64,000 bases of DNA from Candidatus Yanofskybacteria bacterium (GTDB lineage: Bacteria > Patescibacteriota > Minisyncoccia > 2-02-FULL-40-12 > IGHO2-01-FULL-4-A). The position numbers were made by a program, and so were the translations under genes. Numbering within the stretch: position 1 is the first letter of the stretch; each line of letters begins with the position of its first letter. Positions 20,746-55,276 of the stretch are shown one piece after another. The notes beneath the pieces were generated by a model. That model did no database searches. It was given only the letters and a program-made list of their open reading frames with translations, and had not been told where the DNA came from. Where the stretch lies: NCBI GenBank assembly GCA_016185545.1, contig JACPNJ010000003.1, positions 2,567-66,566 of the forward strand. Direction: 5' to 3'.

Positions 20746-20809
20746 ATAACACTACATCCAATTTTCAAGTCGCGTCTTCATGGACCGACTTTTTTATTTA
20801 GAGTTTGGC

Positions 20810-21250: not shown

Positions 21251-21315
21251 AGCGATAGCGAGTGTTCCGGCTCTTTGTAGGCATATGGTTTCAGTTCTAT
21301 TTCACTCCCCTCACC

Positions 21316-21349
<34 letters not shown>

Positions 21350-21444
21350 TCACTATCGATCACCAAAAGTATTTAGTCTTGGACCGTAGTAGGCCCGGAT
21401 TCGCCACGGATAGTCTGCTCCATGGGTACTTAGGGTAGGAGCTC

Positions 21445-21605
21445 ACCTTAAAATTATCTTTCTACTGCAGTTTAATAATTTTGGCTGCGACTTCGTCAGA
21501 TTTCACAAAATGTCCTCGCCGTAGTATAAACTACGCCTCCGGTGATTTTGTTCATCTTCCTCGTCTCGCCAGAAATTATTAAATTTCGCAACGAAAATAA
21601 CTTTA
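21445..21605 (-). repeat. about 160-nt 23S insertion bounded by gagctcaccttaaa / tttaaggtgagctc inverted repeats
   Basis: Inverted repeat seen directly. Confidence 0.45.
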
Positions 21606-21959
21606 AGGTGAGCTCATAATATGAAAAGTTTGATCGTTTTCGCTTAAGGGACTATCACCCGCTTTGGTCGGCCTTTCCAGGACCGTTCGGCTAACAATCA
21701 AATTTGTAACTTTTTTCCAAAACACAACTGAAGACCGCGAACGATCCTCGGCTGTGCTTAGAGTATATTATCCCTGCAACCCTTACCTATTATTAGTAAA
21801 CTAACAAAAGATAAGTTTAGACTGTGCCCCTTTCGCTCGCCGCTACTTAGGGTATGTTTGCGCCTTGCGGCGCATTTGTTTTATTTTCCTCTGGCTACTG
21901 AGATGTTTCACTTCGCCAGGTATGCATCTAGTAGCTAGTTTCTGGTAACTAGTTGCTAG

Positions 21960-22313
21960 TTATTTAAAACTCTTGATAAGATTAAATAACTGCTTACCGC
22001 AGATAGTATATTCACTGATCAAATTTTCATGGTCAGTTTCGCTGATTAACCCAGCATCCTTCATAAAGTTGAGATTAAACAGAACCTCGTCATTAGAACC
22101 CAGCGCATCGTTCAAAAAATTAACTTTATCTTTGGTAGACTTATTTCTACCAAATCCCTCCGCGATATTTGATGGTATTGATCTTGAAGCTCTTCTAATT
22201 TGATCGCAAAGATCATATTTAAGTTCTTTTGGAAGTTTCATAGACAACTGGTGAACTTTTAACGCCAACTTGTAGGACCGATTATATACGTCAAGGTCTT
22301 TATACGAATTCAT
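21960..22313 (-). CDS. four-helix-bundle 23S rRNA intervening-sequence protein (TIGR02436-like), encoded within the helix-9 intervening sequence (21941-22356), which is closed by CTAG-rich inverted repeats
   Basis: ORF track: MNSYKDLDVYNRSYKLALKVHQL...RRASRSIPSNIAEGFGR; insertion lies between GGAAATC...CCCATGCCGGGTAATACC and GAAGTGAAACATCTC (helix 9, the classical intervening-sequence site). Confidence 0.8.
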   Translation of the reverse strand: MNSYKDLDVYNRSYKLALKVHQLSMKLPKELKYDLCDQIRRASRSIPSNIAEGFGRNKSTKDKVNFLNDALGSNDEVLFNLNFMKDAGLISETDHENLISEYTICGKQLFNLIKSFK

Positions 22314-23271
22314 AAAAATTTACCAGAAACTAGAAACCAGAAACCAGCTACTAGATATGCCGGTATTACCCGGCATGGGTTTCCCCATTCGGAAATCTCC
22401 GGATCAAAGCCTGCTAGACGGCTCCCCGAAGCATATCGTCGTCACGCCACGTCCTTCGTCGCCTTTTGGTGTCAAGGCATCCTCCATACGCCCTTATATT
22501 CCTTACAAGATTAAATCTGCAATCATTAGATTGCACCCTTCGTAGCTCTGCGAAGCTTTAGCGTAGCAGAGCGAAGTAGGGCCTCATTTAATCTTCTTGA
22601 TGCTTCAAAACTGGCAACTCTTGAACTCGGAAAGTTAGAGAACAACCAGAAAATGCAAAGCATCATTTTATTTTTAATCCCGTTAGAGGTAGGTTGCCGC
22701 CTATGGCAACCGCAAGCTCTAATCGGGATACCCGCTAACTATTCATTTTTTAAATTGCAATCTATTCAATCAGTTTAGTGTTAGCTTCCGTCGGGCACCA
22801 CCTCGATAAACAAGGTGACGCCCGACGACAGCCAATTTATTGATGAAACCCCAGCACCAATTTTGCAAAGTCTAATAACGGCAGGGCGCTTCGCCCATTG
22901 CAGAATATGCCCATTCGGCACGCGCACCCTGCAAAATCTTGGCTAACGTATCATATTTATTTAGCAACTACCAACTAAATTAGGCAAAATGGTGCGGGGT
23001 TATTTTTTGTTTCCATGCTCACTATCGCTGCGCTTGGACAAAAAATAAATCCCGCCAAGCGGGACGTTTTCGGGCACAAATTAACACCAAGACGTCATCC
23101 GCTTTTTTGTAATGCTTTGTTTAATTTTTTCATCCCGTACGAGACAGGATAAGCCTTGCGGCTTATCCGTATCTTATTATATTATATCTACCTTATTAAT
23201 CCCGATTAGATAGCTACTCTAACTTTATTTACTAGCAAAGGCTGTCTCGTTCGGGATTCATCATCAAAATC

Positions 23272-40898: not shown

Positions 40899-41130
40899 CC
40901 TTTATTTATCACTGTTTTTATGTTAAAGTTTTTACATTGACAACTTGATTGCCTAACCCTCGTGGCTTGTCTGCGAGATATGGCACAAAAAATCCCATCC
41001 CTGATACCGAACCCCTCGTTCAGCGACTCAGGGATGGGTCATACTCGAAAGGGTATGTGGACCGAGAGGTCCTACGCTAGCAGGGGGCTTTGTGTTCCCG
41101 CAAGCGGCATAGGTTTTACCCATCCCTACT

Positions 41131-43892: not shown

Positions 43893-45446
43893 ATGAGTAT
43901 TGAAGCGCAACTTGCTGAACTCAAGGAATACGCCAAGCGAGAAAATATTTTGATTTCCGAAACTTTTATTGAATCAAAAAGCGCAAAGAAACCAGGACGA
44001 GAAGTTTTTAATGAAATGATGGCTAAGGTGGAATCATCTAGAGAACCTGTTGGCCTTCTCGCCTGGCACCCTGATCGTCTTGCCAGAAACTCTATTGATG
44101 GCGGTCAAATAATCTACTCCATAGATCAAAGTAAAATTGTTTCTTTGCGCTTCCCTACTTTTTGGTTCGAACCAACTCCTCAAGGATTATTTATGCTTCA
44201 AGTGGCGTTTGGACAATCTAAATATTATTCGGATAATCTTTCCGAAAATGTTAAGCGCGGTATCCGCCAAAAACTTCGTCGCGGAGAATGGCTTACTAAA
44301 GCACCTTTTGGATATTTGAATAACCCCAAGACAAGGACAATAGAACCGCACCCCACGCTTTCAAAAATCCTCGTCAAAGCATTTGAAGCATACGCAACGG
44401 GAAAATATACCTTAGAAAGTTTGGGAAGGTTTTTGGCGGAATATGGTATTGAATCAAAGAACCGAACGCCACTTTCTAAAGCTAATATCAAAAGAATTCT
44501 CACTAACCAAGCATATCTCGGTCTTATCGCCCATAAAGGAGAATATTTTGAGGGCAAATTCCAACCAATTCTCAACCGCGCAACATTTGAAGCCGTGCAA
44601 GAAGTATTACAACAAAGAGCCAAGCCAAGAAAGACAAAGCAAGGTCATAATTTCCCGTTTACAGGCTTAATGACTTGCGGAGAATGTAATTCTCAAATAA
44701 CCGCTCAATGGACTAAAGGAAAATCAGGAGGAATATATCGCTATTATCGTTGTACTAAAAAACGAGGTGCTTGTTCACAAAAATATATCCAAGAAAAAGA
44801 CCTCGTCATACAAATTAAGACACGGCTTCAATCTGTTGCGCTTCCCGATACTCATACAGATTGGATGCTCAAGAAAGTTGATGAGTGGGACAAAGATAAA
44901 ACTAACAAAACAGCATCGTCCGTCCAAAATATCAAATTCAAAATTGTTGAAACGCAAGAGAAACTAGATAAACTTGTTTCCGCCTACATGGACGGCGATA
45001 TTCCAAAAGAAAGTTATCTCACCAAGAAAGAAGATTTACTCAAAATCAAAGTTTCTCTTGTCGAACAGAAAACGAAACCGAACCAGAAAAATCCGCTCGA
45101 ACCCTTGCGCCAATGGGTTTTAGACACGAAAAAAGCCAGTTTCCTAGCTTCTTCCGAAAACTATCACGAAATGAAGCAGATTATCCAAAAGATCGGAACG
45201 AACCCCAAACTTTCAGACCGCTCCCTTTCTTTTTCATTCATTCCACCATCTGGTTTTCTTGCGTCCCGCCTCGCGGGATGCGCCCCCACCATTCCATTCG
45301 CGCCTTTGGCGCGACCTGATTTTTCTGTCTCCGAATCCGAAAGTATCTTTTTGTGTCTCATCGTCCCGAACGATGCATGTTGCCGATACACTACAGCCCG
45401 TTTTCGCTCGCAAAAACGAGTTACTCAACATAATATTTCTTTTTAA
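43893..45446 (+). CDS. large serine recombinase (resolvase/invertase catalytic domain, recombinase domain, zinc ribbon); its C-terminal about 75 aa are encoded by IR-B'
   Basis: LAWHPDRLARNSIDGGQIIYSI (Ser-recombinase active-site region), CGECNS...YRYYRC zinc ribbon. Confidence 0.85.
   Translation: MSIEAQLAELKEYAKRENILISETFIESKSAKKPGREVFNEMMAKVESSREPVGLLAWHPDRLARNSIDGGQIIYSIDQSKIVSLRFPTFWFEPTPQGLFMLQVAFGQSKYYSDNLSENVKRGIRQKLRRGEWLTKAPFGYLNNPKTRTIEPHPTLSKILVKAFEAYATGKYTLESLGRFLAEYGIESKNRTPLSKANIKRILTNQAYLGLIAHKGEYFEGKFQPILNRATFEAVQEVLQQRAKPRKTKQGHNFPFTGLMTCGECNSQITAQWTKGKSGGIYRYYRCTKKRGACSQKYIQEKDLVIQIKTRLQSVALPDTHTDWMLKKVDEWDKDKTNKTASSVQNIKFKIVETQEKLDKLVSAYMDGDIPKESYLTKKEDLLKIKVSLVEQKTKPNQKNPLEPLRQWVLDTKKASFLASSENYHEMKQIIQKIGTNPKLSDRSLSFSFIPPSGFLASRLAGCAPTIPFAPLARPDFSVSESESIFLCLIVPNDACCRYTTARFRSQKRVTQHNISF
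45216..45357 (+). repeat. IR-B'
   Basis: See IR-B. Confidence 0.85.
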
Positions 45447-46899
45447 TCTCACCTACCTTTTTTTGTTCTTCTTCGGAAATTTTAATTTTTCCCATCTTCC
45501 CAAGTTCAATTAATTCCGACTCGTTAAGCGCGTTTAATTCCTTAGCGCGGTTTTCAAGATATTCACGCGTATTCTTGCTTGGGTCATCCAGCACTTCATT
45601 CATTAGGGCATGTATTATCATGCCGACGCGCGGGCTTTGTTTTAAGCCGGCGATCCGCATTACGTCTTCGCCTTTTAACGCCAGCATTTTGGGTGAAACC
45701 GGATCGCGGGCAACCTTGTCTATCATAAACTGCATATGGCGCAGTTTATACGGCTTGGCTTTGGGCACGCCGGAACCGATTCTGTCGGCCTCGCGTACTT
45801 TAATTAAATCCTCCACATTTTCTTTGCCAATATTGGCCACCAGTCGCCTAACCGACGACTCGGTAACCTCGCCGACATTATAGTAAAAAAGGTGATAGCG
45901 CACCAGCTTGATTATTTTTTCCGCTTGTTTCTGCGGAAAACGCATACGATCCATAATTTGAGCCGTCATCCGCGCTCCAATTATCTCATGGGCGTAAAAG
46001 GTGGAATCCGGCCCCTCGCCTCTTTTGCTTCTCGGCTTACCAACATCGTGGAGCAGTGACGCCAAGCGCACTTCCAGCGAATAATTTTTATCGCAAGCAT
46101 AACGAAGTGCGCGTAGATTGTGCTCCCAAACAGTATAAATGTGATGCTTGTTTTGGGTAACACCAAATCCTTCCAACATTTCGGGTAATACGTATTTAAT
46201 CAGCTCTGTTTCTCGCAAAAGCTCCATGCCTTTATCGGCATCGGCTGAATTTATAATTTTAACCAGTTCATCGCGTATCCGCTCTTTGGATATCGCCGCT
46301 ATTAAGCCATGATTTTTTTTAATGGCCCTAAACGTTTCAGTGTCAATGTTAAACCTAAGAGTAGCGGCAAATCTCACCGCTCTTATCATCCGTAAAGCGT
46401 CTTCGTTGAAACGCTCTTCGGGTTTTCCGACTGCTCGGATAAGTTTATTTTTTATATATTCCTGCCCGTCAAAAATATCGGTAATCTCACCACTCCCACT
46501 CATCGCCAGCGCGTTGATAGTAAAATCACGCCTTTTCAAATCCTCCTCCAACTTATCGGCGAACTTTATTCGGTCGGGATGTCTTTTGTCAGTATATTTG
46601 GACTCAATGCGATAGGTGGTAATCTCAACAACTTGCAAGGTTTGATCCTCGCTTCCGGTTTTGATGCCAACGGTTCCGAATTTATTTTCGTAAAAACTAT
46701 CCGGGAAAAGTTTTTGGATTTCTTCTGGCTTGGCATTAGTGGTTACGTCCCAATCGTTTGGCTTTTCACCCATGAGCAAATGCCTTACGCTCCCGCCGAC
46801 AATATAGGCCTCGTAACCTTCCGATGATAGCTTTGTTAAAATATCACTGACCTCTCTCGGTAATTTTGAATTTTGAATTTTGAATTTTGAATTTTGCAC
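45421..46899 (-). CDS. cca: CCA-adding enzyme / tRNA nucleotidyltransferase with HD domain; N-terminus encoded by GAATTTT heptamer repeats (the ORF track's ATG 46917 would overlap tRNA-Arg; a GTG at 46899 is more plausible)
   Basis: EAYIVGGSVRHLLMGEKPNDWDVTT and HD motif LLHDVGKP. Confidence 0.8.
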   Translation of the reverse strand: MQNSKFKIQNSKLPREVSDILTKLSSEGYEAYIVGGSVRHLLMGEKPNDWDVTTNAKPEEIQKLFPDSFYENKFGTVGIKTGSEDQTLQVVEITTYRIESKYTDKRHPDRIKFADKLEEDLKRRDFTINALAMSGSGEITDIFDGQEYIKNKLIRAVGKPEERFNEDALRMIRAVRFAATLRFNIDTETFRAIKKNHGLIAAISKERIRDELVKIINSADADKGMELLRETELIKYVLPEMLEGFGVTQNKHHIYTVWEHNLRALRYACDKNYSLEVRLASLLHDVGKPRSKRGEGPDSTFYAHEIIGARMTAQIMDRMRFPQKQAEKIIKLVRYHLFYYNVGEVTESSVRRLVANIGKENVEDLIKVREADRIGSGVPKAKPYKLRHMQFMIDKVARDPVSPKMLALKGEDVMRIAGLKQSPRVGMIIHALMNEVLDDPSKNTREYLENRAKELNALNESELIELGKMGKIKISEEEQKKVGEIKKKYYVE

Positions 46900-46908
46900 T
46901 TTTGGTTG

Positions 46909-46981
46909 TGCCCCCACCAGGACTTGAACCTGGATCGCCTCGTTAGGAGTGAGGTACTCTATCCAGTTGAGCTATGAGGGC
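46909..46981 (-). tRNA. tRNA-Arg (anticodon CCT)
   Basis: RC gccctcatagctcaactggatagagtacctcactCCTaacgaggcgatccaggttcaagtcctggtgggggca; one A-C mismatch in the anticodon stem. Confidence 0.7.
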
Positions 46982-47037
46982 GTTTAATTATCCTTGTAAT
47001 CTTAACATTTTTATGGTATTTTTACAATTGAAATAGC

Positions 47038-47111
47038 GGGCCCGTAGCTCAGCTGGTTAGAGCGCTTCGATGGCATCGAAGAGGTCGCCCGTTCGAATCG
47101 GGTCGGGTCCA
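47038..47111 (+). tRNA. tRNA-Ala (anticodon GGC)
   Basis: gggcccgtagctcagctggttagagcgcttcgatGGCatcgaagaggtcgcccgttcgaatcgggtcgggtcca; G3:U70. Confidence 0.85.
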
Positions 47112-47160
47112 CAATCCAAAATTTTGCAAAATTTAGAATTTACGACATGGGCATAAATTT
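47110..47160 (+). repeat. 51-bp direct repeat copy 1 (cacaatccaaaattttgcaaaatttagaatttacgacatgggcataaattt), starting at the tRNA-Ala 3' end
   Basis: Identical copy at 48798-48848. Confidence 0.85.
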
Positions 47161-47247
47161 TGAGTTGACAAAGTAGTATTGCTAAAGTTTGCAGGGAGTA
47201 AACTATAAGCAAACAAGGTCTAAAAAATTAAAATTAACTATAAAATT

Positions 47248-47625
47248 ATGCTAAAAACTATAATAAAGTCGGCGATGTTTTCTGCGATAACTCTTGGTTT
47301 GATGTTGGTCGCAAATCAAGTCGCTTTCGCCGCGGCTAAATGTACCGTCAATGGTCGTGAAGTTGATTGTGCGGAGTTAGGCAATAAAGTTAAAGGTTTT
47401 TTGGGCTGGGGAATCGGTAGCTTTTTTGTCATCTTCGCTCTTGGAATTTGGGCGATAGTGTTTTGGATAATGATGATTGTTCACGCCGCCCAACATGATG
47501 TCGAAAATAAAGCGATGTGGATAATTTTAATGGTGTTTACCGGCGTTATCGGTGCATTAATTTACTACTTCGTGGTAAAACGAAAATTCGGTAAGCGGTT
47601 TTCGCCGTCAACCCCGATGAGATAA
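47248..47625 (+). CDS. hypothetical membrane protein (125 aa)
   Basis: ORF track; 3 transmembrane helices. Confidence 0.5.
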   Translation: MLKTIIKSAMFSAITLGLMLVANQVAFAAAKCTVNGREVDCAELGNKVKGFLGWGIGSFFVIFALGIWAIVFWIMMIVHAAQHDVENKAMWIILMVFTGVIGALIYYFVVKRKFGKRFSPSTPMR

Positions 47626-47626
47626 T

Positions 47627-48796
47627 ATGCCTGATAAATTTACAGATGTAACTACAACTGGATACGGTGGACGGATAGTCAACTCGATAAAAGGAGTAGT
47701 AATCGGCCTTATTCTCTTTGTCGTTTCGTTCGGCTTACTTTATTGGAACGAAGGACGAGTTGATTTATCCAATATAGCAAAAACTGCTACCGAAATAAGT
47801 TCGGCGACAGTTAGTACCGATTCAACACTTAGTGGAAAACTTATTTCGACAACCGGAAATGCAAACTCCGATCAAATTATCGGAGATAATTTATTTTTGA
47901 ATCCGGATAAATTTATCGCAGCAAAGCGCGAAGTGGAAATGTATTCGTGGATAGAAAAATCGGAATCCCACAACAAAACAAATACTGGCGGTTCGGAAAC
48001 AACCGAAACGACTTATACTTACTCAAAAGATTGGACAGAAAATCCAAAATCTTCAAGTAATTTCAAACACCCAGAAGGACACGAAAACCCGCAGAAAAGT
48101 TTGGATAGCTACACCAACAAGGTTACCACCGCGATAATCGGGGTTTACAACTTTGACCCCAAAAGTGTGGCACTTCCAAACTTTTCTCAACTTCCGCTCA
48201 ATTCTCAAAATGTAACTTTGAATGACGGCGCGACTTTGGCAAACGACAGTTATATTTTTATCAAAAAAAGTGAGAACGGAACATTTGACAGTCCTCAAAT
48301 TGGCGACTTGCGCATAAGCTATCATGTCTTGCGTCTCGGATTTGACGGAACAATTTTTGGTAAATTGAGCGGAAGTAAAATTGAGCCTTACTTTGACCAA
48401 GACGGAAATAATCTTTACAGATTGTTTATAGGCACACGTGACCAAGCGATTTCCACACTTCACACAGAATACACGACTCTCCTTTGGATTTTACGGCTTG
48501 TTGGATTTTTGCTGATGTGGTTTGGGCTCTCCGCCTTATTTGGTCCAATTAGTGTTTTATTGGACATCTTGCCAATTTTTGGAACAATAAGTCGTTCGGT
48601 AATTGGCATGATAACTTTTTTAGTTGCGCTCGTGCTCACAATTGTAACAATTCTTGTTTCAATGATTGCGCATAATCTTATTGCGCTTATTATCACTTTA
48701 GTCATAACTGTCGGAACTATTATTACTTTCTTTGTGATGATGAAAAACAAGAAAAAAGCGAGTGGCGGGGTGGAGCGTTCAAATTTCATCCAATAA
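47627..48796 (+). CDS. hypothetical membrane protein (389 aa; N-terminal transmembrane helix, C-terminal polytopic)
   Basis: ORF track; 1-bp gap to the upstream gene. Confidence 0.5.
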   Translation: MPDKFTDVTTTGYGGRIVNSIKGVVIGLILFVVSFGLLYWNEGRVDLSNIAKTATEISSATVSTDSTLSGKLISTTGNANSDQIIGDNLFLNPDKFIAAKREVEMYSWIEKSESHNKTNTGGSETTETTYTYSKDWTENPKSSSNFKHPEGHENPQKSLDSYTNKVTTAIIGVYNFDPKSVALPNFSQLPLNSQNVTLNDGATLANDSYIFIKKSENGTFDSPQIGDLRISYHVLRLGFDGTIFGKLSGSKIEPYFDQDGNNLYRLFIGTRDQAISTLHTEYTTLLWILRLVGFLLMWFGLSALFGPISVLLDILPIFGTISRSVIGMITFLVALVLTIVTILVSMIAHNLIALIITLVITVGTIITFFVMMKNKKKASGGVERSNFIQ

Positions 48797-48797
48797 A

Positions 48798-48848
48798 TAC
48801 CACAATCCAAAATTTTGCAAAATTTAGAATTTACGACATGGGCATAAA
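48798..48848 (+). repeat. 51-bp direct repeat copy 2
   Basis: See copy 1. Confidence 0.85.
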
Positions 48849-49280
48849 TTTGTGGTTTTGTCGGAAAGTTTTGATTACTGACATCGTTGACACATCAATG
48901 TTCAGCGCGGAACAAAAAAGAATACAAAAACTGCGGCTTGGCTGGTTTGAGCATACCCAAGAAAAAACATACAATATTGCCAAAACTTGCCGTTATTATG
49001 GAATTTCAAGACAAACCTATTACAAATGGCTGTGGAGATACAATTCGCTTGGAAAAAAAGGTTTAGTTAACCAATCTAAAAGACCTCTTAATACCCCCCC
49101 CCCACAAATCCAAAAATACGAAAAATCACAAAGAGTTTGCGCTTGTGCCACCACTGGGGTGGCACTAGAATAAAACGCTGGCTTAAAACGCGCCATGATA
49201 TTAATATTAGTTCATCAACTATATATAAAATCCTCAAAAAATATGGGATTAACCGATTATCATTATTAAAGAAAAATTGA
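48838..49280 (+). pseudogene. IS481/IS3-like transposase N-terminal (HTH) remnant, frameshifted at a C9 homopolymer (about 49095-49104), DDE domain missing
   Basis: TYNIAKTCRYYGISRQTYYKWLWRY HTH; after the poly-C tract another frame continues RWLKTRHDINISSSTIYKILKKYGINRL. Confidence 0.6.
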
Positions 49281-49313
49281 AAAATATGGGAATTTTGTGT
49301 TAAACTTGCCTTT

Positions 49314-49844
49314 ATGCAGAAACATTTTGAGAAACGGCTAAGATTAAATAACCAGATACGAGAACCGCAGGTTTTTGTTATTGACACTGATGGTAAACAG
49401 CTAGGCGTTATATCCACGAACGAAGCTCTACGCCTTGCCAATGAGCGCGGACTTGATTTGGTAGAGGTCGGACCTTTGGCTAAGCCTCCTATTGCTAAAA
49501 TCATAGATTATGGTAAATATATGTACCAGAAAGAAAAACGCGAAAGGGGCGGCAAAACTAGCAAAACTCCCGGTCAAGAGGTCAAAACCGTAAGGGTCGG
49601 CTTCACCACCGGCAATCATGATTTGTTGGTCAGAGCCAAACAAGCGGATAAATTCCTTAAACTTGGCAACCGAGTAAGGGTTGAAATGCCTCTTCGCGGA
49701 CGGGAAAAAAGTATGTCTAACATAGGCAGAGAAAAAATGGAATCATTCCTCAAACTAATAACCGCTCCTTTTACGCAGGAAGAACCAATTAAAAGAGCAC
49801 CTTTTGGACTAGGATTATTAATCAGCCCTGAAAAACACAAATAA
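49314..49844 (+). CDS. infC: translation initiation factor IF-3
   Basis: NQIREPQVFVIDTDGKQLGVISTNEALRLANERGLDLVEV; typical infC-rpmI-rplT order. Confidence 0.9.
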   Translation: MQKHFEKRLRLNNQIREPQVFVIDTDGKQLGVISTNEALRLANERGLDLVEVGPLAKPPIAKIIDYGKYMYQKEKRERGGKTSKTPGQEVKTVRVGFTTGNHDLLVRAKQADKFLKLGNRVRVEMPLRGREKSMSNIGREKMESFLKLITAPFTQEEPIKRAPFGLGLLISPEKHK

Positions 49845-49852
49845 ATGCCCTA

Positions 49853-50062
49853 ATGAATATGAATAAGCTAAAACTGAAAACTTCCAAATCGGCTTTGAAA
49901 CGTTTTAAAATTTCGTCTGGCGGCAAATTCCAGCGCAGACGTTCAAGAATAAATCACTTTAATGCCAGACAGGACGGAGCCGCTCGCAGAAACAGCAGGG
50001 GTCAAGAAATTCTTGCCAAACAGAATGAGAAAGATATAAATAATTTGATGCCATATGTTTAG
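49853..50062 (+). CDS. rpmI: 50S ribosomal protein L35
   Basis: KTSKSALKRFKISSGGKFQRRRS. Confidence 0.85.
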   Translation: MNMNKLKLKTSKSALKRFKISSGGKFQRRRSRINHFNARQDGAARRNSRGQEILAKQNEKDINNLMPYV

Positions 50063-50135
50063 CCACTAGTAACTAGTAACTAGCCACTGGTAAAATTCTA
50101 GTTGCTAGACGCTAGTCGCTAGGCACTAGTTTGCC
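50063..50135. repeat. CTAG-rich palindromic repeat block between rpmI and rplT (ccactagtaactagtaactagccactgg...ctagttgctagacgctagtcgctaggcactagt)
   Basis: Seen directly; member of a dispersed family. Confidence 0.7.
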
Positions 50136-50487
50136 GCGAGTTAAACGAGGAACAACCGCAAATAAACGGCGCAAGAACTTGCTGAAACACGCTAAGGGTT
50201 TTAAGTGGGGCAGAAAAACTAAATACCGCGCCGCCAAAGAAGCATTGCTCCACGCCTGGACATTCCAGTTTAACGACCGCCGTAAGAAAAAAGGTTATGC
50301 TCGCCGCCTCTGGCAAATACAAATTGGGGCGGCAACGAAACTAAACGGACTCCCCTACAACAAGTTTATAAATGGCCTCAAAAAATCTCATATAGAACTG
50401 GACCGCAAAATTCTCTCCGACCTCGCCCGGCATGAACCAGAAATTTTTAAAAAAATAGTTGAAATTTCCCAGTCAGCAACAAGATAA
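50131..50487 (+). CDS. rplT: 50S ribosomal protein L20
   Basis: MPRVKRGTTANKRRKNLLKHAKGF. Confidence 0.92.
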   Translation: MPRVKRGTTANKRRKNLLKHAKGFKWGRKTKYRAAKEALLHAWTFQFNDRRKKKGYARRLWQIQIGAATKLNGLPYNKFINGLKKSHIELDRKILSDLARHEPEIFKKIVEISQSATR

Positions 50488-50638
50488 ACCAAAACTGCAG
50501 TCTACAAGTCTCTAGAATGGAACACCATAGAACAGACCGTTCTAAAAGGAAATACACATTCCAGACTTTTAATTTTAGTATAGTAGGTTATTAAAAACGA
50601 TGAAGCCCACGATAACCGTTGTGGGTCCATCGTGGGCG

Positions 50639-50746
50639 TTACTTCTTGTTTTCCAGGGCATTTGCGATACGCCCCAGCTTATCGCTGATACCTAAAAGTA
50701 CCAGCGCTATCGCAAAGAGCTCTACGATGATCCCAAGGGCTTCCAT
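50639..50746 (-). CDS. possible 35-aa small hydrophobic protein (MEALGIIVELFAIALVLLGISDKLGRIANALENKK) missed by the ORF track
   Basis: Strong RBS GGAGGATGTGAAATG; hairpin terminator cccacgat..atcgtggg downstream (50590-50635). Confidence 0.35.
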   Translation of the reverse strand: MEALGIIVELFAIALVLLGISDKLGRIANALENKK

Positions 50747-51020
50747 TTCACATCCTCCAGTCCGAGTTCAGTGTGTTTTAATTATATCATATATTTTTAG
50801 TAATTGCAATAGCTAAATTGTCTAGGTTTCATGGGCTTTTTAGCGTGTCCCCGCTTATCGATGACATTCTTAAGTTGTTGAGGTCATAAGTTGTTGAGGT
50901 CAAACCTCCACAAAGCCGCGGACCCGACAAAAAAGAAACCGCCTCATCCAGCCGGCTTACCGGATATTCGTTTGTAAATTTAAAATCCATAATTGCAGCG
51001 CCACGGGAAGTTAGCTTCGA

Positions 51021-51713
51021 CTACAACTTAGCAGCTCTAATTATTCCGTCCATAAGACCCCTTATCTTAAAGAATTCTTGCCTTTGACTGACACGAAGTT
51101 GAAGCGTGCCGTGCGGTAATAAATTCATGGGTCTTTTCCCTCGACTAGCTCTGCTTAAAGCAACCTGACAGCGAAAGTTCTCTTTAGGAACTTTAGTAAG
51201 ATTCTGCCAGTATTTTATACATTTATTAGAATCTAGATTTGGATAAATCATAACCTGACCTCTAATCCTGTCTTTAGAAATACCCATTACTTTATTAAGG
51301 AAACTCACAAAAACAAGTATCATCTCTGGGTCTGAATTTCCAAAACACATATATGGATATGTGAATCTTTTTGGATTAAAATTTTTGTAACCTTCGCCCC
51401 AATAAAGTCCGGCTCCAAGAATCATTAATTCTCTATTATTGAGAGTCCCAATACGAGATTCATAATTTTTTCTAATATCCTCATTCTCCTTTTTAATATT
51501 TAGGGTTCTAATTTTATTAAATTCGAGCAACTTCAAATACCCATTTTTTCTTTTGGACTCTAAAATTCTCCTTGCCCCGCTGTTTAATTCAAGGGTAGAA
51601 AACCAATTACTAAGAGTAGATTTTGGTATTCCAAAAAGGCCTCTTATTTCACCGTAAGTTTTACCCTCTAACCTACTGGCTAAAGCTACTTGATAATCCT
51701 TTCTAGAATTCAT
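51021..51713 (-). CDS. free-standing LAGLIDADG-type homing endonuclease-like protein with N-terminal HTH, starting 2 nt after tRNA-Glu
   Basis: KTYGEIRGLFGIPKSTLSNWF HTH; single motif LMILGAGLYWGEGYK. Confidence 0.6.
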   Translation of the reverse strand: MNSRKDYQVALASRLEGKTYGEIRGLFGIPKSTLSNWFSTLELNSGARRILESKRKNGYLKLLEFNKIRTLNIKKENEDIRKNYESRIGTLNNRELMILGAGLYWGEGYKNFNPKRFTYPYMCFGNSDPEMILVFVSFLNKVMGISKDRIRGQVMIYPNLDSNKCIKYWQNLTKVPKENFRCQVALSRASRGKRPMNLLPHGTLQLRVSQRQEFFKIRGLMDGIIRAAKL

Positions 51714-51714
51714 G

Positions 51715-51786
51715 CAGCCCCAAGGAGAATCGAACTCCTATTTGCTTCTTGAAAGAAAGCCGTCCTAACCATTAGACGATAGGGCC
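51715..51786 (-). tRNA. tRNA-Glu (anticodon TTC)
   Basis: RC ggccctatcgtctaatggttaggacggctttcTTCaagaagcaaataggagttcgattctccttggggctg; G1-U72 wobble. Confidence 0.7.
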
Positions 51787-51863
51787 ATGCAAACCACTGA
51801 TTATATAATACCAAACTATTATCGGTAGTTCAATACAATAAATGTTGATAAACTGCCTCCAAA

Positions 51864-53000
51864 ATGCTAAAGTATTCGCTTATGAAGATACTCGGTATTG
51901 AAACATCTTGCGATGAAACGGCGGCGTCTTTGTTAGACATAAAGAATGGCAAGGTTAAAGTTTTATCAAGCATAATTTCTTCGCAGATAAAGCTTCACGC
52001 CAAATATGGCGGAGTGGTTCCCTCTTTGGCCGCCCGCGAGCATGTTAAAAACCTCCCCAAAGTACTCAAACTCACACTGTTGAGGTCAAACCTCAACAGT
52101 GTGGCAGATGTTGATTTGATAGCTACAACTCGCGGGCCGGGTTTAATTTCATCTTTGCTTATCGGCACAACTTTTGCCAAAACTTTAGCCTGGAAATATA
52201 ACAAACCGATTATCGGAGTTAATCACCTTGAAGGACATATTTACTCGAATTGGCTGAAACCAATTCGAGAATTTTCAATTTTAAATTTTAAATTTTCAAA
52301 AAAAATGTTTCCGATATTGAATTTAATAGTTTCCGGCGGACATACGGAGCTGGCCATAATGACTGATTTTGGTAAATACAAAATAATAGGCCGAACCCTT
52401 GATGACGCCGCGGGTGAAGCATTTGATAAAATCGCCCGCATACTCGGGCTAGGTTATCCTGGCGGACCGGTAATCAGCCAAGAAGCTGAAAGGTTACAGG
52501 TTACAGGTTACAGGTTACAGAAAAAATTACCCAGGCCCATGATCAATTCTAAAGATTTTAACTTCAGTTTTGCCGGGCTTAAAACGGCGGTTTTGTACTT
52601 AGTAAGAGATTTATTAAAAGATAAAAAAATAAAAAAACTTGGTAAACCAACAACAGCCGGTATCGCCGCCGAATCACAGCAGGCGATAGTTGACGTCCTC
52701 GTCGCCAAAACAGTAGATGCCGCTGAAAAATATAAAGCAAAATCAATTATGCTTTCCGGCGGGGTTTCGGCAAATAAACTTTTACGTACCGAGCTGGAAA
52801 AAGCCGCTGCAAAAAAAGGCATCAAATTTTTCAAACCGGAAATGAAATATACCACCGATAATGCCTCGATGATTGCGTTGGCTGGATATTGGCAAAGTAA
52901 AAATATAAAAACAACCCCGAAAAGCTTCGCAACGAGGCGAGAAAATAAAAAATTGGACCGGCAAAATGTAAAAGTAGATGCGAATCTAGAATTGGTGTGA
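51864..53000 (+). CDS. tsaD: tRNA N6-adenosine threonylcarbamoyltransferase TsaD (Kae1/Gcp) carrying three in-frame repeat insertions
   Basis: GIETSCDETAA, HxxGH (HLEGH), SGGVSAN motifs; insert blocks at 52071-52101 (palindrome), 52262-52300 (AATTTT heptamers), 52496-52517 (GGTTACA x3). Confidence 0.88.
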   Translation: MLKYSLMKILGIETSCDETAASLLDIKNGKVKVLSSIISSQIKLHAKYGGVVPSLAAREHVKNLPKVLKLTLLRSNLNSVADVDLIATTRGPGLISSLLIGTTFAKTLAWKYNKPIIGVNHLEGHIYSNWLKPIREFSILNFKFSKKMFPILNLIVSGGHTELAIMTDFGKYKIIGRTLDDAAGEAFDKIARILGLGYPGGPVISQEAERLQVTGYRLQKKLPRPMINSKDFNFSFAGLKTAVLYLVRDLLKDKKIKKLGKPTTAGIAAESQQAIVDVLVAKTVDAAEKYKAKSIMLSGGVSANKLLRTELEKAAAKKGIKFFKPEMKYTTDNASMIALAGYWQSKNIKTTPKSFATRRENKKLDRQNVKVDANLELV

Positions 53001-53014
53001 TAAAATTTCAGTAA

Positions 53015-55276
53015 ATGGATACTTTTAATAAAACTTACAATCCAAAAGAAACTGAAGATAAAATTTATAAACTCTGGCTTGAGTCGGGGTTTTTCATTCC
53101 CTCCTCCGCTACCTCCTTCGCTAAAGCTACAAAGGTCAAGAAAGCTACGGGGAATAAGCCGGAAAAAAAGTTTGTAACTTGTATCGCTCCACCCAATATT
53201 ACCGGCGAATTACATATGGGTCACGCGCTGGAATATACGCTCCAGGATATTATTGTGCGCGTTAAACGCATGCAGGGGTATAGGACACTTTGGCTACCCG
53301 GAATCGACCATGCCGGCATTGCCGCACAAAATGCCGTTGAAAAACAGCTCACCAAGGAAAACATAAGCCGGCATAAGCTGGGTAGGGAAAAGTTCCTTGA
53401 ACGTATGTGGCAATGGCGCGATCAATATGGCAATGTGATTTTAGAACAGCTTAAAAAGCTTGGCGCTTCGCTTGACTGGACTCGGTTGAGATTCACCATG
53501 GACCCCGACTATCAAAAAGCGGTTCAGGAAGCATTCATTCACTATTACAAAAAGGGTTGGATTTATCAGGGGGAGCGCGTTATAAACTGGTGCATCCGCT
53601 GTGCCACATCAATTTCCGACCTTGAGGTAAATTATATACCAGAAAAAGCAAAACTTTATTACATAAAATACGGGCGGTTTACTCTGGCAACGGTCAGACC
53701 GGAAACTAAGCTTGGCGATACGGCCTTAGCCGTGCATCCAAACGATGAACGTTATAAAAAATATATCGGAGAGGATTTGGAAATAGAAACGGTAGACAAC
53801 GATTTGCCATTAGAACAAGCAGCTAAAGTTAAAAAAATAAAAATAAAAGTTGTCGCTGATGAAGCCGTGGATCCGGAATTCGGCACCGGCATTGTCAAGG
53901 TCACGCCGGCCCATGATTTAACCGATTTTGAAATCGCCCAACGCCAAAACCTGCCTTCACTTAAAATTATTGACGAGCACGGCCGGATGAATGAAAATGC
54001 CGGCATCCGTTATCAAGGCTTGAAAACGGCTGAAGCGCGCGAACGAATAGTTAAAGACCTTGAAACACTCGGACTAATTGAAAAAATAGATGGCTACGAA
54101 CACAACATTGCACGTTGCGACCGTTGTAATTCGGTGATTGAACCGCTACCGTCAAAACAATGGTTTTTAAAAATGAAAGAATTGGCCCGATTCGCGCTTG
54201 TGGCCCTGCGTAAAAAAGAAGTGCGACTGCATCCCGAACGCTGGAGTGGAGCATTGGAACATTGGCTGGACCCAAAAAACATCCGGGATTGGAATATTTC
54301 AAGACAGCTTTGGTGGGGGCACCGCTTGCCGGTCTGGCATCATGAACCCAAATGCGTGCCCAAACCTGGTCATGAAAAAGATATAGACAAATGTATAGAC
54401 ATGAAGGTTTCCGCCGAAAAACCGATTTGCGAATATTGTGACGCGAAATTCATGCAATCTGAAGACGTGCTGGATACTTGGTTTTCTTCAGCACTCTGGC
54501 CATTCGCCACGCTCGGATGGCCGCAAGACTCGGAGGCTCAACCTCCAAGGGAGGTTGAGCCTCCGAAGATTCCATCCGATTTCAAAGAATACTACCCGAC
54601 TGATTTTATAACCTCTGACCGCGGCATATTGTTTTTGTGGCAAGCACGTATGATTTTTTCAGGATTGGAATTTACTGGCAAGGTACCATTCAAGGACATT
54701 TATATCCACGCTACAATTTTGACTAAGGATGGCAAGCGGATGTCCAAATCGCTTGGAACTGGTGTTAACCCTCTTGACCTGATTGAAAAATACGGCACCG
54801 ACGCTTTGCGTTTCGGTTTGGCATCGCAGGCAACGGGACTGCAAGACCTGCGCTTTGGCGAGGACTTATTGGTAATGGGTAAAAAATTCGCCAATAAAAT
54901 TTGGAACATTACACGATATGTTACGATGAAATCCGAAATCCTAAATCCGAAATCCGAAACAATATCAAAATCAGAAATTCCAATTATCCAAAAAATGAAC
55001 GGGGTCGCAAAAACAGTGACCGAAAACATCGAGAAATATAATTTTGCTGAAGCGGCAAATTCGCTTTACAAATTTATCTGGCATGAATTTGCTGATAAAT
55101 ACATTGAGGAAAGCAAGGACCAAGATGATCAAGAAACCAAAGACACCCTCGCCTATCTCCTCATAAACTCGCTCAAACTCCTCCACCCCTTCATGCCTTT
55201 CCTTACCGAAGAAATCTGGTCTAAACTCCCCATCCCCGATAAAAAACTCCTCCTTGTGGAAGATTGGCCTTCTTGA
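53015..55276 (+). CDS. valS: valyl-tRNA synthetase (compact, 753 aa) with a heptamer-repeat-encoded insertion
   Basis: PPNITGELHMGHA, WLPGIDHAGIA, KRMSKSLG (KMSKS); repeat aaatccgaaatcctaaatccgaaatccgaaac at 54930-54965 encodes KSEILNPKSET. Confidence 0.85.
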   Translation: MDTFNKTYNPKETEDKIYKLWLESGFFIPSSATSFAKATKVKKATGNKPEKKFVTCIAPPNITGELHMGHALEYTLQDIIVRVKRMQGYRTLWLPGIDHAGIAAQNAVEKQLTKENISRHKLGREKFLERMWQWRDQYGNVILEQLKKLGASLDWTRLRFTMDPDYQKAVQEAFIHYYKKGWIYQGERVINWCIRCATSISDLEVNYIPEKAKLYYIKYGRFTLATVRPETKLGDTALAVHPNDERYKKYIGEDLEIETVDNDLPLEQAAKVKKIKIKVVADEAVDPEFGTGIVKVTPAHDLTDFEIAQRQNLPSLKIIDEHGRMNENAGIRYQGLKTAEARERIVKDLETLGLIEKIDGYEHNIARCDRCNSVIEPLPSKQWFLKMKELARFALVALRKKEVRLHPERWSGALEHWLDPKNIRDWNISRQLWWGHRLPVWHHEPKCVPKPGHEKDIDKCIDMKVSAEKPICEYCDAKFMQSEDVLDTWFSSALWPFATLGWPQDSEAQPPREVEPPKIPSDFKEYYPTDFITSDRGILFLWQARMIFSGLEFTGKVPFKDIYIHATILTKDGKRMSKSLGTGVNPLDLIEKYGTDALRFGLASQATGLQDLRFGEDLLVMGKKFANKIWNITRYVTMKSEILNPKSETISKSEIPIIQKMNGVAKTVTENIEKYNFAEAANSLYKFIWHEFADKYIEESKDQDDQETKDTLAYLLINSLKLLHPFMPFLTEEIWSKLPIPDKKLLLVEDWPS

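Follow-up and report, generated by a model that had tools for sequence, protein, structure and literature searches.

Heptanucleotide tandem arrays and small perfect palindromes in housekeeping genes, 23S rRNA and spacers of Candidatus Yanofskybacteria and other Patescibacteria

In this work, a 64-kb stretch of DNA from Candidatus Yanofskybacteria (the window) was found to carry period-7 tandem arrays in frame in cca, tsaD and valS, as well as in expansion hairpins of the 23S rRNA gene and in intergenic hairpins (Table 1). The first-pass annotation had recognized a canonical TsaD, ValS and a CCA-adding enzyme, in agreement with their Pfam domains. All the elements that it listed were found, with coordinates shifted by 2–7 bases, and both the in-frame translation of the repeats and the use of like unit types in coding, rRNA and intergenic hairpin settings were borne out. 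In tsaD, the palindrome has a stem of 14 bp at 52073–52103, not 13 bp at 52071–52101, the AATTTTM array lies at 52270–52296, not 52262–52290, and the GGTTACA units form 4.3 perfect copies, not three units. The valS palindrome, the hairpin adjoining the tsaD array and about ten further in-frame palindromes with stems of at least 9 bp elsewhere in the window had been missed.

Table 1. Genes, arrays, palindromes and hairpins in the window, with the basis of each assignment
Feature	Position	Strand	Basis
cca (CCA-adding enzyme)	45421–46899	-	Pfam PolyA_pol, RNA-binding and HD domains
Perfect (AAAATTC)x5 array, CCA N-terminal extension QNSKFKIQNSK	46862–46896	-	TRF period 7, 5.0 copies, 100% match
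tsaD	51882–53000	+	Pfam TsaD 4e-85; ATG 51882 probable start by alignment with relatives
tsaD site 1, perfect 14+3+14 palindrome encoding (L)TLLRSNLNSV	arms 52073–52086, 52090–52103	+	Palindrome search
10-bp hairpin directly adjoining tsaD site 2 array	52244–52269	+	Palindrome/hairpin search
tsaD site 2, AATTTTM array encoding FSILNFKFS	52270–52297	+	TRF, ~3.9–4 copies
tsaD site 3, perfect AGGTTAC x4.3 array encoding LQVTGYRLQ	52491–52520	+	TRF
valS	53015–55276	+	Pfam tRNA-synt_1, Anticodon_1
valS perfect 17+3+17 palindrome encoding SEAQPPREVEPP	54530–54566	+	Palindrome search
valS GAAATCC x4.6 array encoding KSEILNPKSE	54928–54959	+	TRF
Heptamer-armed hairpin (ACTAGTA, GCTAGAC arms), rpmI–rplT spacer	50062–50130	+	TRF
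16-nt unit repeated twice, intergenic, ending in small palindrome	50871–50912 (repeat proper 50871–50902)	+	TRF
Heptamer-armed intergenic hairpin, AGGTTAC x4.4 (61410–61440) and ACCTGAA-type arm	61405–61486	-	TRF, fold
Second copy of the 61405–61486 hairpin, AGGTTAC array 63670–63709	63667–63760	-	TRF
23S expansion hairpin, CTGGTWT and ACYAGWA heptamer arms	18790–18863	-	TRF
Paralogous 23S expansion element	19025–19131	-	Comparison with 21130–21240 element
23S expansion element with a central 16-bp hairpin between an AAAATTC-type and a TTTTGNN-type arm	21130–21240	-	Comparison with 19025–19131 element
ORF-bearing 23S insertion flanked by complementary heptamer arms TGGTTTC, GAAACCA/GAAACTA	21927–22351	-	TRF

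Exact period-7 arrays of at least 2.5 copies numbered six in the window and none in dinucleotide shuffles, and near-exact ones numbered 12 against 0.1 expected. Periods 4–6 and 8–15 stayed at background level in the window, and no heptamer array was found in a 50-kb E. coli control that included tsaD and cca. Chance is thus excluded for the window arrays. Furthermore, 26 perfect palindromes with stems of at least 9 bp were present in the window, compared with 3–5 in shuffles.

The effect of these elements on the encoded proteins differs between sites. The extra loops that had been proposed for the listed sites were confirmed at the AATTTTM site of tsaD only, which adds a true loop of 8–12 aa relative to solved TsaD structures and E. 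coli TsaD (pLDDT ~67); the palindrome, the GGTTACA array and the valS array bring small or no gain. Site 1 aligns residue for residue with the TLKEAGLKSVEE of relatives without net insertion, is only 1–3 aa longer than in the same structures and E. coli TsaD, and encodes a helix end and turn that are confidently predicted (pLDDT >90, predicted structure). Site 3 adds 4 aa to the canonical G-N-P-x-A-F segment, and the valS array lies within a variable linker with no net gain in length. The valS palindrome is a true in-frame insertion of 13 aa, with an empty site in the relative L083 and other insertions at this position in L081 and L082. The probable GTG start of cca lies 9 nt downstream of a tRNA-Arg gene, and this start and the N-terminal extension of 10 aa are common to the window, close relatives and L099. 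The relatives' extension is of equal length but degenerate (MQKSKFKSQNE or MQRSKTNTKKLE), and it is perfectly periodic only in the window. Clear net insertions are therefore confined to tsaD site 2 and the valS palindrome; the remaining in-frame elements replace the sequence of variable segments and hardly change their length. As 7 is no multiple of 3, a unit is read in all three frames along the array, and the peptide has a period of 7 aa. Judged from the sequences, wherever a copy of the unit would bring a stop codon into frame, that very copy has a substitution; at tsaD site 2, C stands in place of A at the point where TAA would otherwise be read in frame.

The rpmI–rplT hairpin folds with -30.7 kcal/mol (z -3.45) on the sense strand. 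The hairpin at 61405–61486 lies between two co-directional T4SS-pilin-like genes and folds with -35.6 kcal/mol (z -5.1) on the sense strand and -29.8 on the other; in both of its copies, the AGGTTAC array is followed by a partly complementary ACCTGAA-type arm. The earlier description of such hairpins as terminator-like did not hold, since the heptamer-armed ones sit between co-directional genes and were not called as intrinsic terminators, in contrast to plain GC-rich hairpins nearby. The last copy of the intergenic 16-nt unit runs into a 21-mer (50892–50912) that has one mismatch to the tsaD palindrome centre, with 0.01 such matches expected by chance. The 5.2-kb 23S gene holds a TTTTGAA run at 21206–21236 and an ATTTTAA run at 19100–19131. 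Of its two paralogous elements, the one at 19025–19131 has a central hairpin that differs on both arms and is still complementary.

Period-7 arrays were abundant across Patescibacteria. In 1.14 Mb of Patescibacteria loci there were 160 of them, against 43 of period 6, 13 of period 8 and 3 of period 9, and none in E. coli. About 75% of arrays (124/166) lay in long open frames, as did 78 of the 122 (AAAATTC)n arrays in an independent metagenome scan, where all 20 host proteins tested were bona fide enzymes; the hosts include IleRS/ValRS-type synthetases, LeuRS, MetRS, SecA, PriA, Mfd, PolX and PGK. In many lineages, arrays appear at the same permissive segments of housekeeping proteins, in rRNA expansion hairpins and in gene spacers. 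Unit pairs within one mismatch made up 17% within a locus and 11.6% between loci. Most array units within one genome differ from each other, which argues for local birth. The comparisons point to concerted turnover, in which the unit differs between relatives while copies within an array are alike and the length is nearly constant.

The tsaD sites were compared in 87 Patescibacteria loci. Site 3 showed a strong lag-7 signal in 18 of them, scattered over the TsaD tree, against one at lag 6 and one at lag 8, and it was canonical in 27. The unit at this site is AGGTTAC in the window and L097, CAATTTT in L081, CAACTTT in L082, CAATTCC in L083, GCTACAA in L223, GTTAAAA in L007, AAACACC in L013 and CAATATT in L067. 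The same sites with different heptamers in different lineages at similar length imply site persistence, concerted unit turnover and several independent origins. Within a cluster of 90% identity, differences concentrate at tsaD site 2, which speaks for fast turnover. In L083, a GC-rich palindrome is nested inside an ATTTCTA heptamer array, and L081 has an in-frame hairpin whose GAAAUUC and GGAUUUC arms pair via G:U wobble on the sense strand.

A perfect hairpin often adjoins the 5' end of an array. The 3' arm of such a hairpin has the reverse-complement sequence of conserved codons upstream and follows the synonymous changes in them. In the window, conserved S-N-W codons make up the 5' arm of the hairpin at tsaD site 2, and their reverse complement, read as P-I-R codons, forms the 3' arm. 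At site 2, 26% of loci had a perfect stem of at least 7 bp, compared with 3.5% elsewhere in the same genes; for a minimum of 10 bp the values were 11.8% and 0.4%. Among 28 unselected NW-type TsaD genes, 70.2% of cells were paired compared with 63.0% in shuffles (0/500 reached the observed value), and 21 cells had changed on both sides compared with 11.6. In L005, CGA stands where complementarity would need an in-frame TGA. A stem of at least 8 bp was present beside 10.2% of arrays and 3.2% of random positions. Coding arrays had 13 such hairpins on the 5' side and one on the 3' side, with the array starting -5 to +2 nt from the stem end, although tsaD site 2, a single homologous site, accounts for most of those on the 5' side, which are thus not fully independent. 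The adjacency was only weakly replicated in the independent (AAAATTC)n set (5 vs 1 with a stem minimum of 8 bp, 7 vs 7 with 7 bp). The predicted gradient of younger units next to the hairpin was not significant (p = 0.27).

These arrays resemble the cyanobacterial STRR in their tandem units of exactly 7 nt, their few to about ten copies and many unit types per genome, their frequent inverted pairs able to form stem-loops, and their extensive variation in length and sequence between close relatives at conserved positions. Both also occur inside a structural RNA gene, here the 23S gene and, as Vioque reportedly described in 1997, the RNase P RNA gene of heterocystous cyanobacteria. They differ from STRR in host lineage (Patescibacteria, with Candidatus Yanofskybacteria and many others), in A+T-rich and not G-rich units, in the frequent perfect host-codon hairpin at the 5' end, and in that about three quarters of them lie inside housekeeping-gene reading frames and not in spacers. 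Heptamer over-representation has been reported for intergenic regions of Xanthomonas and Nostoc. Heptameric SSRs are over-represented in many bacteria, with polymerase-footprint slippage as the proposed cause (PMC4692102), and no description of heptamer repeats of this kind in Patescibacteria was found in the literature. We hypothesize, with a probability slightly above one half (about 0.55), that the arrays are STRR-type heptanucleotide SSRs which, together with small perfect palindromes, are remade by replication-level mutation and filtered by selection, and are not inserted mobile repeats.

The first-pass annotation had viewed them as short repeats that spread, with the same families used again in rRNA and in spacers. 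The arrays would then be miniature non-autonomous mobile elements, as would the palindromes and heptamer-armed hairpins, that insert at tolerant sites, including reading frames, and are akin to Rickettsia palindromic elements or to the small dispersed repeats (SDR) of Nostoc. Several copies agree with this, namely the 21-mer common to the tsaD palindrome and the intergenic site, the two ~95-nt heptamer-armed hairpins, the two ~105-nt 23S elements, and the GCCAAAGGCGGATCCGCCTC (AKGGSASG) palindrome in the L083 TsaD C-terminus, mid-ValS of L082 and the P0132 CCA N-terminus. The empty valS site in L083, the absence of the rpmI–rplT hairpin from the collinear relative L099, the nested palindrome of L083 and unit sharing slightly higher within than between genomes (22/2000 permutations reach the observed value) also favour it. 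However, most arrays of one genome have different units, orthologous sites in many lineages carry lineage-specific units at constant length, the gain in length at tsaD sites 1 and 3 and at the valS array is small or nil, and hairpin arms are made of the host gene's own conserved codons. Moreover, no target-site duplications, terminal inverted repeats or cognate transposase for the arrays were seen. Local birth with concerted turnover fits better than dispersal of fixed elements, and a few small elements that are genuinely dispersed exist. Mobile elements as the general explanation thus seem unlikely.

Rickettsia palindromic elements (RPE) are dispersed elements of 100–150 bp that form recognisable sequence families and add 30–50 aa, whereas the palindromes here are 26–37 nt long, are mostly unique in sequence, often lengthen the protein little or not at all, and at tsaD sites 1 and 2 partly consist of the host's own conserved codons. 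In both cases, palindromic DNA lies in frame in essential genes and is present in spacers and RNA genes as well; in-frame palindromes of this type are tolerated because they are located in permissive protein parts. The SDR of Nostoc are reportedly repeats of ~20–30 nt nested in tandem heptamers and hairpins, similar to the palindrome in the L083 array and the AKGGSASG palindrome within the P0132 cca extension, but few dispersed small elements were seen here, their context is coding, and SDR-like mobility is only putative. These families are referenced to Ogata et al. (2000, 2002), as cited in PMC5896051, and to Elhai et al. (2008, Genome Res 18:1484), as cited in PMC3116915, respectively.

Hairpins and heptamer arms could also be selected signals kept for a function in RNA or DNA structure, which may lie in polycistronic mRNA processing or stability, RNase III stems of the rRNA insertions, translational pausing, or binding of nucleoid or replication proteins. 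Intergenic hairpins occur at homologous positions in the window and L099 with different sequences, rRNA insertions have stems made of heptamer arms, the L081 hairpin pairs on the sense strand, and sense-strand folds are 3–6 kcal/mol more stable in two of three large hairpins because of G:U pairs. The tsaD hairpin covaries, but template-switch correction would be just as likely to produce this where one arm is constrained. Such a function appears quite improbable, as the coding arrays with a single arm (tsaD site 3, valS, cca) lack anything to pair with, the 7-periodicity of the arms is left unexplained, many lineages have no hairpin or array at the same sites (site 3 is canonical in 27 of 87), and the large hairpins do not qualify as intrinsic terminators.

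In neuO of the E. coli K1 prophage CUS-3, all three unit frames of a coding heptanucleotide repeat are likewise translated, and translation is intact only if the added length, and hence the copy number, is divisible by 3 (PMC13001214). The arrays here are perfect or nearly so, and those in reading frames could in principle be contingency loci that switch genes on and off by slippage. This role is very improbable, because neuO is dispensable and phase-variable with 3–53 repeats, whereas the arrays here are short (4–5 units, within a range of 3–6), lie in single-copy essential housekeeping genes (tsaD, valS, cca, leuS, secA, priA) in which an OFF state would be lethal, occur in rRNA and spacers too, and were in frame in every sequence, with no switching seen. 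The source is a metagenome-assembled genome and a perfect 42-nt duplication in the 23S core (18063–18147) looks suspicious, but chimeric joins or collapsed or expanded repeats are hardly credible for arrays of 25–45 nt, shorter than sequencing reads, with intact reading frames and the same sites affected in dozens of assemblies made independently, in different studies and with different assemblers.

As for remaking by replication-level mutation, template switching makes imperfect inverted repeats perfect, with one arm serving as template for the other, and a polymerase that pauses at a hairpin is more prone to slip between short direct repeats. Quasi-palindrome template-switch mutagenesis and hairpin-paused slippage were reportedly worked out by Ripley in 1982, the Lovett laboratory, and Viguera, Canceill and Ehrlich in 2001. 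Such models predict perfect palindromes that track the constrained arm and repeats that adjoin stems, as found here, although they describe laboratory mutational events in E. coli and the process proposed here would have shaped genomes over evolutionary time. Within ORFs, Borg tandem repeats have unit lengths that are multiples of 3 and add new regions, whereas the 7-nt unit here mostly overwrites existing variable segments. The two are alike as fast-evolving perfect repeats arising independently in ORFs and between genes of a lineage; those of Borgs create disordered protein regions (PMC9879509).

Some observations count against slippage. A strain-variant scan found no copy-number variation at the arrays, a one-unit slip in an essential gene shifts the frame and the arrays are homogeneous and constant in length, and AAAATTC and GGTTACA units recur in unrelated replicons. 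Furthermore, a simple threshold-plus-seed-rarity model predicts a gentler drop from period 7 to 8 than the one observed (160 to 13), and the 21-mer, the ~95-nt hairpins, the 23S elements and the GCCAAAGGCGGATCCGCCTC palindrome are dispersed copies for which slippage alone does not account. We propose that quasi-palindromes beside constrained codons would become perfect by intra-strand template switching, after which only changes in the unconstrained arm survive. On a single-stranded template, such hairpins would stall the polymerase, and the stalled primer end would slip by ~7 bp, about the duplex length held in the polymerase according to the published footprint idea. This slippage would seed and re-homogenise heptamer arrays at the hairpin base, while a minority of small palindromes and hairpin elements would also be copied between loci. 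Purifying selection would then retain only frame-preserving, stop-free arrays in tolerant segments.

Tandem Repeats Finder identified about 22 heptanucleotide (period-7) arrays within the 64 kb of the window. Exact arrays with at least 2.5 copies of a 7-nt unit were found six times, against 0.0 in dinucleotide shuffles, and near-exact ones 12 times against 0.1 expected, with near-exact arrays of periods 4–6 and 8–15 at background. The head-to-tail unit is exactly 7 nt, as in the cyanobacterial heptamer repeats (STRR), and it occurs above chance and above other periods. A 50-kb control stretch of E. coli with tsaD and cca contained no period-7 arrays. Several distinct unit families coexist in the window (AATTTTG/A, AGGTTAC, GAAATCC, ACTAGTW, and ACCAGAA). 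Furthermore, 26 perfect palindromes with a stem of at least 9 bp were counted, compared with 3–5 in shuffles, and about 12 of them are located inside reading frames. Every repeat element listed in the first-pass annotation was recovered, with coordinates shifted by 2–7 bases. The products of tsaD (Pfam TsaD 4e-85), valS, and cca are canonical. ValRS belongs to class I; the CCA-adding enzyme carries an HD domain and is 100% identical to an NCBI protein from a Candidatus Yanofskybacteria MAG, encoded on a 101.6-kb contig. Among TsaD relatives, the closest with a name belong to Candidatus Yanofskybacteria as well.

Positions of repeat elements and other features in the window
Feature	Position	Strand	Remarks
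23S gene	17267-22508	minus	ORF-bearing insertion and two inverted-repeat-bounded insertions
42-nt tandem duplication	18063-18147		perfect; inside conserved 23S core
23S insertions bounded by inverted repeat CCCGCTCAAATTTTTGG / CCAAAAATTTGAGCGGG	~21000-20432 and 18560-18230		ORFs on opposite strand
LOOT RNA match (RF03000)	40950-41073		full-length; 69.5 bits vs gathering score 46.4
cca	45421-46917	minus	public model P0128: 450 aa from internal ATG
52-nt direct repeat	47109-47160 and 48800-48851		perfect; starts in tRNA-Ala(GGC) 3' end
Cassette bracketed by 52-nt repeats	47248-48796		1.69 kb; two membrane-protein genes (PLDc_N-like, TMEM43-like)
IS481-type HTH ORF	48838-49173		past cassette; broken at run of C
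rpmI-rplT hairpin	50062-50130
ORF of 230 aa	51021-51713	minus	no Pfam match; between tRNA-Glu and palindrome-copy spacer
tsaD site 1, palindrome	52073-52103
Hairpin (10 bp) abutting tsaD AATTTTM array	52244-52269		absent from first-pass annotation
tsaD site 2, AATTTTM array	52270-52297
tsaD site 3, AGGTTAC array	52491-52520
valS palindrome (17+3+17)	54530-54566		absent from first-pass annotation
Pilin-spacer hairpins	61405-61486 and 63667-63760		heptamer-armed

The repeats had been described as in-frame insertions into the three genes, which holds for tsaD site 2 and for the valS palindrome. At site 2, the array adds 8 to 12 aa in a segment of low model confidence (pLDDT ~67), and the valS palindrome adds 13 aa in frame, the comparison locus L083 having the empty site. 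In contrast, the valS GAAATCC array lies in a variable linker, whose overall length it does not increase, and the palindrome at tsaD site 1 adds only 1 to 3 aa relative to solved TsaD structures and E. coli TsaD. Site 1 aligns residue for residue with relatives (TLLRSNLNSVAD in the window, TLKEAGLKSVEE in the relatives) and forms the end of a confident helix and a turn (pLDDT >90 in an AlphaFold model with a mean pLDDT of 82). The array at tsaD site 3 adds 4 aa. The cca array encodes an N-terminal extension of 10 aa, equal in length in the closest relatives. The start of cca is a conserved GTG located 9 nt past tRNA-Arg, in or beside the heptamer array, as supported by relatives and by the collinear locus L099; the NCBI model drops the conserved N-terminus, and with it the region of the GG motif. 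Other features of the window include the 52-nt-repeat cassette, which resembles what remains of an element inserted at the tRNA, the LOOT RNA match, and the 230-aa ORF. An ORF of similar size, also without a Pfam match, is present in L099 at the matching position upstream of tsaD.

The tsaD comparison comprised 87 Patescibacteria loci, 80 among the matches listed in a TsaD scan of genome contigs (relatives all at 41–55% identity) and 7 closer relatives fetched individually. In 1.14 Mb of these Patescibacteria loci (among the matches listed and closer relatives), 160 period-7 arrays were detected, compared with 43 of period 6, 13 of period 8, and 3 of period 9. The canonical 24-aa segment of tsaD site 3 (YPGGP..G-N-P-x-A-F..PRP) was found in 27 of the 87 loci, and in its place 18 loci showed a strong lag-7 signal (lag 6 and lag 8, one each). 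The remaining 42 were mostly degenerate-array-like or carried other insertions. The units at this site are lineage-specific (AGGTTAC, CAATTTT, CAACTTT, CAATTCC, GCTACAA, GTTAAAA, AAACACC, and CAATATT), the copies are alike within each array, and the length is 27–28 aa; this turnover of units across lineages is concerted evolution. Moreover, the array state is scattered on the TsaD tree, and the arrays have multiple origins because in at least one case, L037, the array is nested among canonical forms. Within a protein cluster of 90% identity, tsaD differences are concentrated at site 2; two strains of this cluster are at recombination-scale divergence, so that a single mutational step is unreadable between them. 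In L099, heptamer hairpins occupy the matching pilin-gene spacers with different units. A small fixed repertoire of units per genome was rejected, as sharing within genomes is only modest.

Long open frames, which span 87% of the sequence, contain 124 of the 166 arrays; 76 of these coding arrays are in tsaD and 48 elsewhere, often in ValS. Nostoc and Xanthomonas heptamers were reported as predominantly intergenic (PMC4692102), and such placement is not seen for the Patescibacteria arrays. An independent set was obtained by scanning metagenome contigs for (AAAATTC)3.5, which gave at least 120 loci with 122 arrays. Among the matches listed, 78 of the 122 arrays were in open frames 100 codons or longer, and the sense strand of the in-frame arrays was always AAAATTC, the complement of which has TGA. 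All 20 tested host ORFs are bona fide enzymes. The hosts include synthetases (IleRS/ValRS-type, three LeuRS, MetRS) as well as SecA, UvrD-like helicase, Mfd, PriA, PolX, Mur ligase, PGK, MnmA, glycosyltransferases, and others. In one SecA gene (L105:213-2849), a GAAATCC-type array and an AAAATTC array adjoin (KSEILNPKSETNPKFKIQNSK), and the peptide of the first, KSEILNPKSET, is the same as that of the valS array in the window. The 7-nt unit is not a whole number of codons, so each of its three frames is translated and the peptide also has a period of 7 aa (NSKFKIQ, LQVTGYR). When a unit would give an in-frame stop, precisely the offending copy is changed; at tsaD site 2 in the window, AATTTTA has C for A at both in-frame phases. 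Stops occur on the sense strand in 28% of consensus units versus 34% in the background, a small depletion. Stops are escaped through single variant copies, and not through the avoidance of stop-bearing units.

Many arrays form the arms of imperfect hairpins, such as an in-frame hairpin in the locus L081 with (GAAATTC)n and (GGATTTC)n arms. Unexpectedly, a coding array is often immediately preceded on its 5' side by a perfect hairpin. Stems of 7 bp or more were present at tsaD site 2 in 26% of loci versus 3.5% elsewhere in the same genes, and stems of 10 bp or more in 11.8% versus 0.4%. The 5' arm consists of conserved codons (S/A-N-W, A-N-F, S-V-F, and others) and the 3' arm is its reverse complement, which means that the upstream codons determine the residues further down: TCG is matched by CGA (R), TCT by AGA (R), TCC by GGA (G), and AGC by GCT (A). 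In L005, where Ser is TCA, CGA is found at the position at which complementarity needs an in-frame TGA. In 28 NW-type tsaD genes, chosen regardless of pairing, 70.2% of cells were paired versus 63.0% in shuffles (0 of 500 reached the observed value), 21 cells were changed on both sides versus 11.6 expected, and slid controls were paired at 16–45%. Four pairs were changed on both sides, with a covariation score of 0.228 versus 0.129 in shuffles (0 of 500). The hairpin at site 2 thus shows compensatory change, although relatedness or template-switch correction could give an equal signal. Of all arrays, 10.2% are flanked by a stem of 8 bp or longer, compared with 3.2% of random positions. Among such stems at coding arrays, 13 precede the array on its 5' side and one follows it on the 3' side, with the array start at −5 to +2 nt from the stem end. 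Replication in the (AAAATTC)n set among the matches listed was weak (with a minimum stem of 8 bp, 5 versus 1; with a minimum of 7 bp, 7 versus 7), and we therefore call the link with hairpins frequent and not general. Unit decay with distance from the 5' end or hairpin showed no significant gradient (p = 0.27), and this claim was dropped.

A mutational origin of the arrays is the best-supported reading. Heptameric SSRs are over-represented in many bacteria, and slippage tied to the DNA segment gripped by the polymerase has been offered as an explanation (PMC4692102). We propose that arrays would be generated locally by template switching and hairpin-paused slippage, and that purifying selection would then act on them, favouring an intact frame, freedom from stops, and tolerance. 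Local generation is suggested because the units are diverse within a genome, the sites persist with concerted turnover, and the hairpins use host codons. Stalling at the hairpin would lead to the 7-nt slippage step, and the polarity of hairpin and array may be tied to lagging-strand templates; GC skew follows gene orientation and is therefore uninformative on fork direction. Slippage leaves unaccounted for the homogeneous, constant-length arrays in essential genes, in which a one-unit slip is lethal, the sharp drop from period 7 to period 8, and the recurrence of AAAATTC and GGTTACA in unrelated replicons, including 11 viral contigs. The latter are IMG/VR contigs (L084-L094, GC 0.32-0.68) with (GGTTACA) arrays of at least 3 units, all non-coding, and in L092 and L093 some of these arrays adjoin other heptamer arrays and complementary arms. 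Such arrays are thus not confined to Patescibacteria.

Mobile miniature elements, the main competing explanation, account for a minority of the features. The spread of short repeats proposed in the first-pass annotation may hold for a single 21-mer common to two sites (tsaD and 50892), for duplicated hairpin elements, for a palindrome that recurs in different genes of different genomes, and for the empty sites of the valS palindrome in L083 and of the rpmI-rplT hairpin, which is absent from the collinear L099, but not for the arrays in general. The recurrent palindrome, GCCAAAGGCGGATCCGCCTC (AKGGSASG), lies in frame at the C-terminus of tsaD in L083 (207-1454), in the middle of valS in another locus, L082 (3437-5596), and in the N-terminal extension of a CCA protein, P0132; no other element here is as good a candidate for a truly mobile mini-element. 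No target-site duplication is evident at the valS and rpmI-rplT sites, and the only transposase-like ORF nearby in the window is the broken IS481-type HTH. The 17-mer of the tsaD palindrome had two matches in IMG/VR, about as many as chance would give at this length.

The hairpins in spacers and in rRNA may instead reflect selection on RNA or DNA structure. The pilin-spacer elements of ~95 nt fold on the sense strand at −35.6 and −33.0 kcal/mol and the rpmI-rplT element at −30.7 kcal/mol, and two of the three large hairpins are more stable on the sense strand because of G:U pairs. The intergenic hairpins had been taken as terminator-like; this reading finds no support, as the pilin-spacer and rpmI-rplT hairpins were not reported by the terminator scan and are placed between co-directional genes. 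Of the elements, the scan matched only one, the hairpin inside tsaD that has the AATTTTC array behind it. The 23S gene spans 5.2 kb compared with a 2.9-kb model and contains several expansion hairpins with heptamer arms. Two of these are paralogous elements of ~105 nt; between them, the central hairpins have diverged on both arms and are still complementary. The 42-nt duplication in the 23S core could be real, beside an insertion site, or an assembly artefact.

Phase variation, as in the E. coli K1 gene neuO, is unlikely within essential genes: the hosts are tsaD, valS, cca, leuS, metS, secA, priA, and pgk and not dispensable surface-related genes, and all orthologous sequences are in frame. 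A search of the metagenome collection with both flanks of tsaD site 3 and a variable gap returned 0 matches to strain variants. Assembly artefact is excluded as the source of the arrays because they recur in dozens of independent assemblies.

Each component is already known, namely STRR, the GGGNATC repeats of Xanthomonas and Nostoc, the Rickettsia palindromic elements (RPE), the in-frame heptamers of neuO, and quasi-palindrome correction. STRR in the strict sense have a heterocystous cyanobacterial host, whereas the present genome is a Candidatus Yanofskybacteria MAG. The valS palindrome, with its empty site in L083, resembles RPE in being inserted in frame into a protein gene; however, RPE form a dispersed family of similar copies of 100–150 bp, whereas the palindromes here are 26–37 nt and the valS one is unique within the window. 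In the literature searched, no link of heptamer repeats with Patescibacteria, Parcubacteria, or CPR was found. Their combination in the housekeeping genes of Patescibacteria, where arrays are pervasive, in frame, anchored at hairpins, and subject to concerted turnover, appears undescribed in the literature that could be searched.

Essential genes normally avoid tandem repeats with a non-triplet unit, since slippage by one unit destroys the frame. Here, tsaD, valS, and cca contain perfect arrays of 4–5 heptamers, as do leuS, secA, priA, and pgk elsewhere, across a whole bacterial radiation. The arrays mislead gene callers, as with the truncated cca model, they inflate apparent protein divergence, and they could serve as fast strain markers. 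If slippage or template switching is responsible, a distinctive mutational signature of Patescibacteria shapes protein segments, rRNA expansions, and operon spacers. For some residues of conserved enzymes, the choice would then be dictated not by protein function but by complementarity of the DNA to adjacent codons, as at tsaD site 2, where the third, synonymous base of a Ser codon would decide between R and G. Under slippage, the hundreds of independent arrays at orthologous sites would also be a comparative system for the long-standing, untested polymerase-footprint explanation. It is conceivable, though we consider it rather unlikely, that a single lineage-wide, hairpin-anchored process with a 7-nt step keeps rewriting tolerant parts of essential proteins, rRNA expansions, and spacers throughout Patescibacteria; it could be a trait of the replisome or repair repertoire, or a novel enzyme or element acting at hairpin bases. 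If so, the module of hairpin and heptamer array would be the footprint of this process and a built-in source of peptide novelty and genetic load in reduced genomes, and the old question of why heptamers, that is, of STRR origin, would become experimentally tractable.
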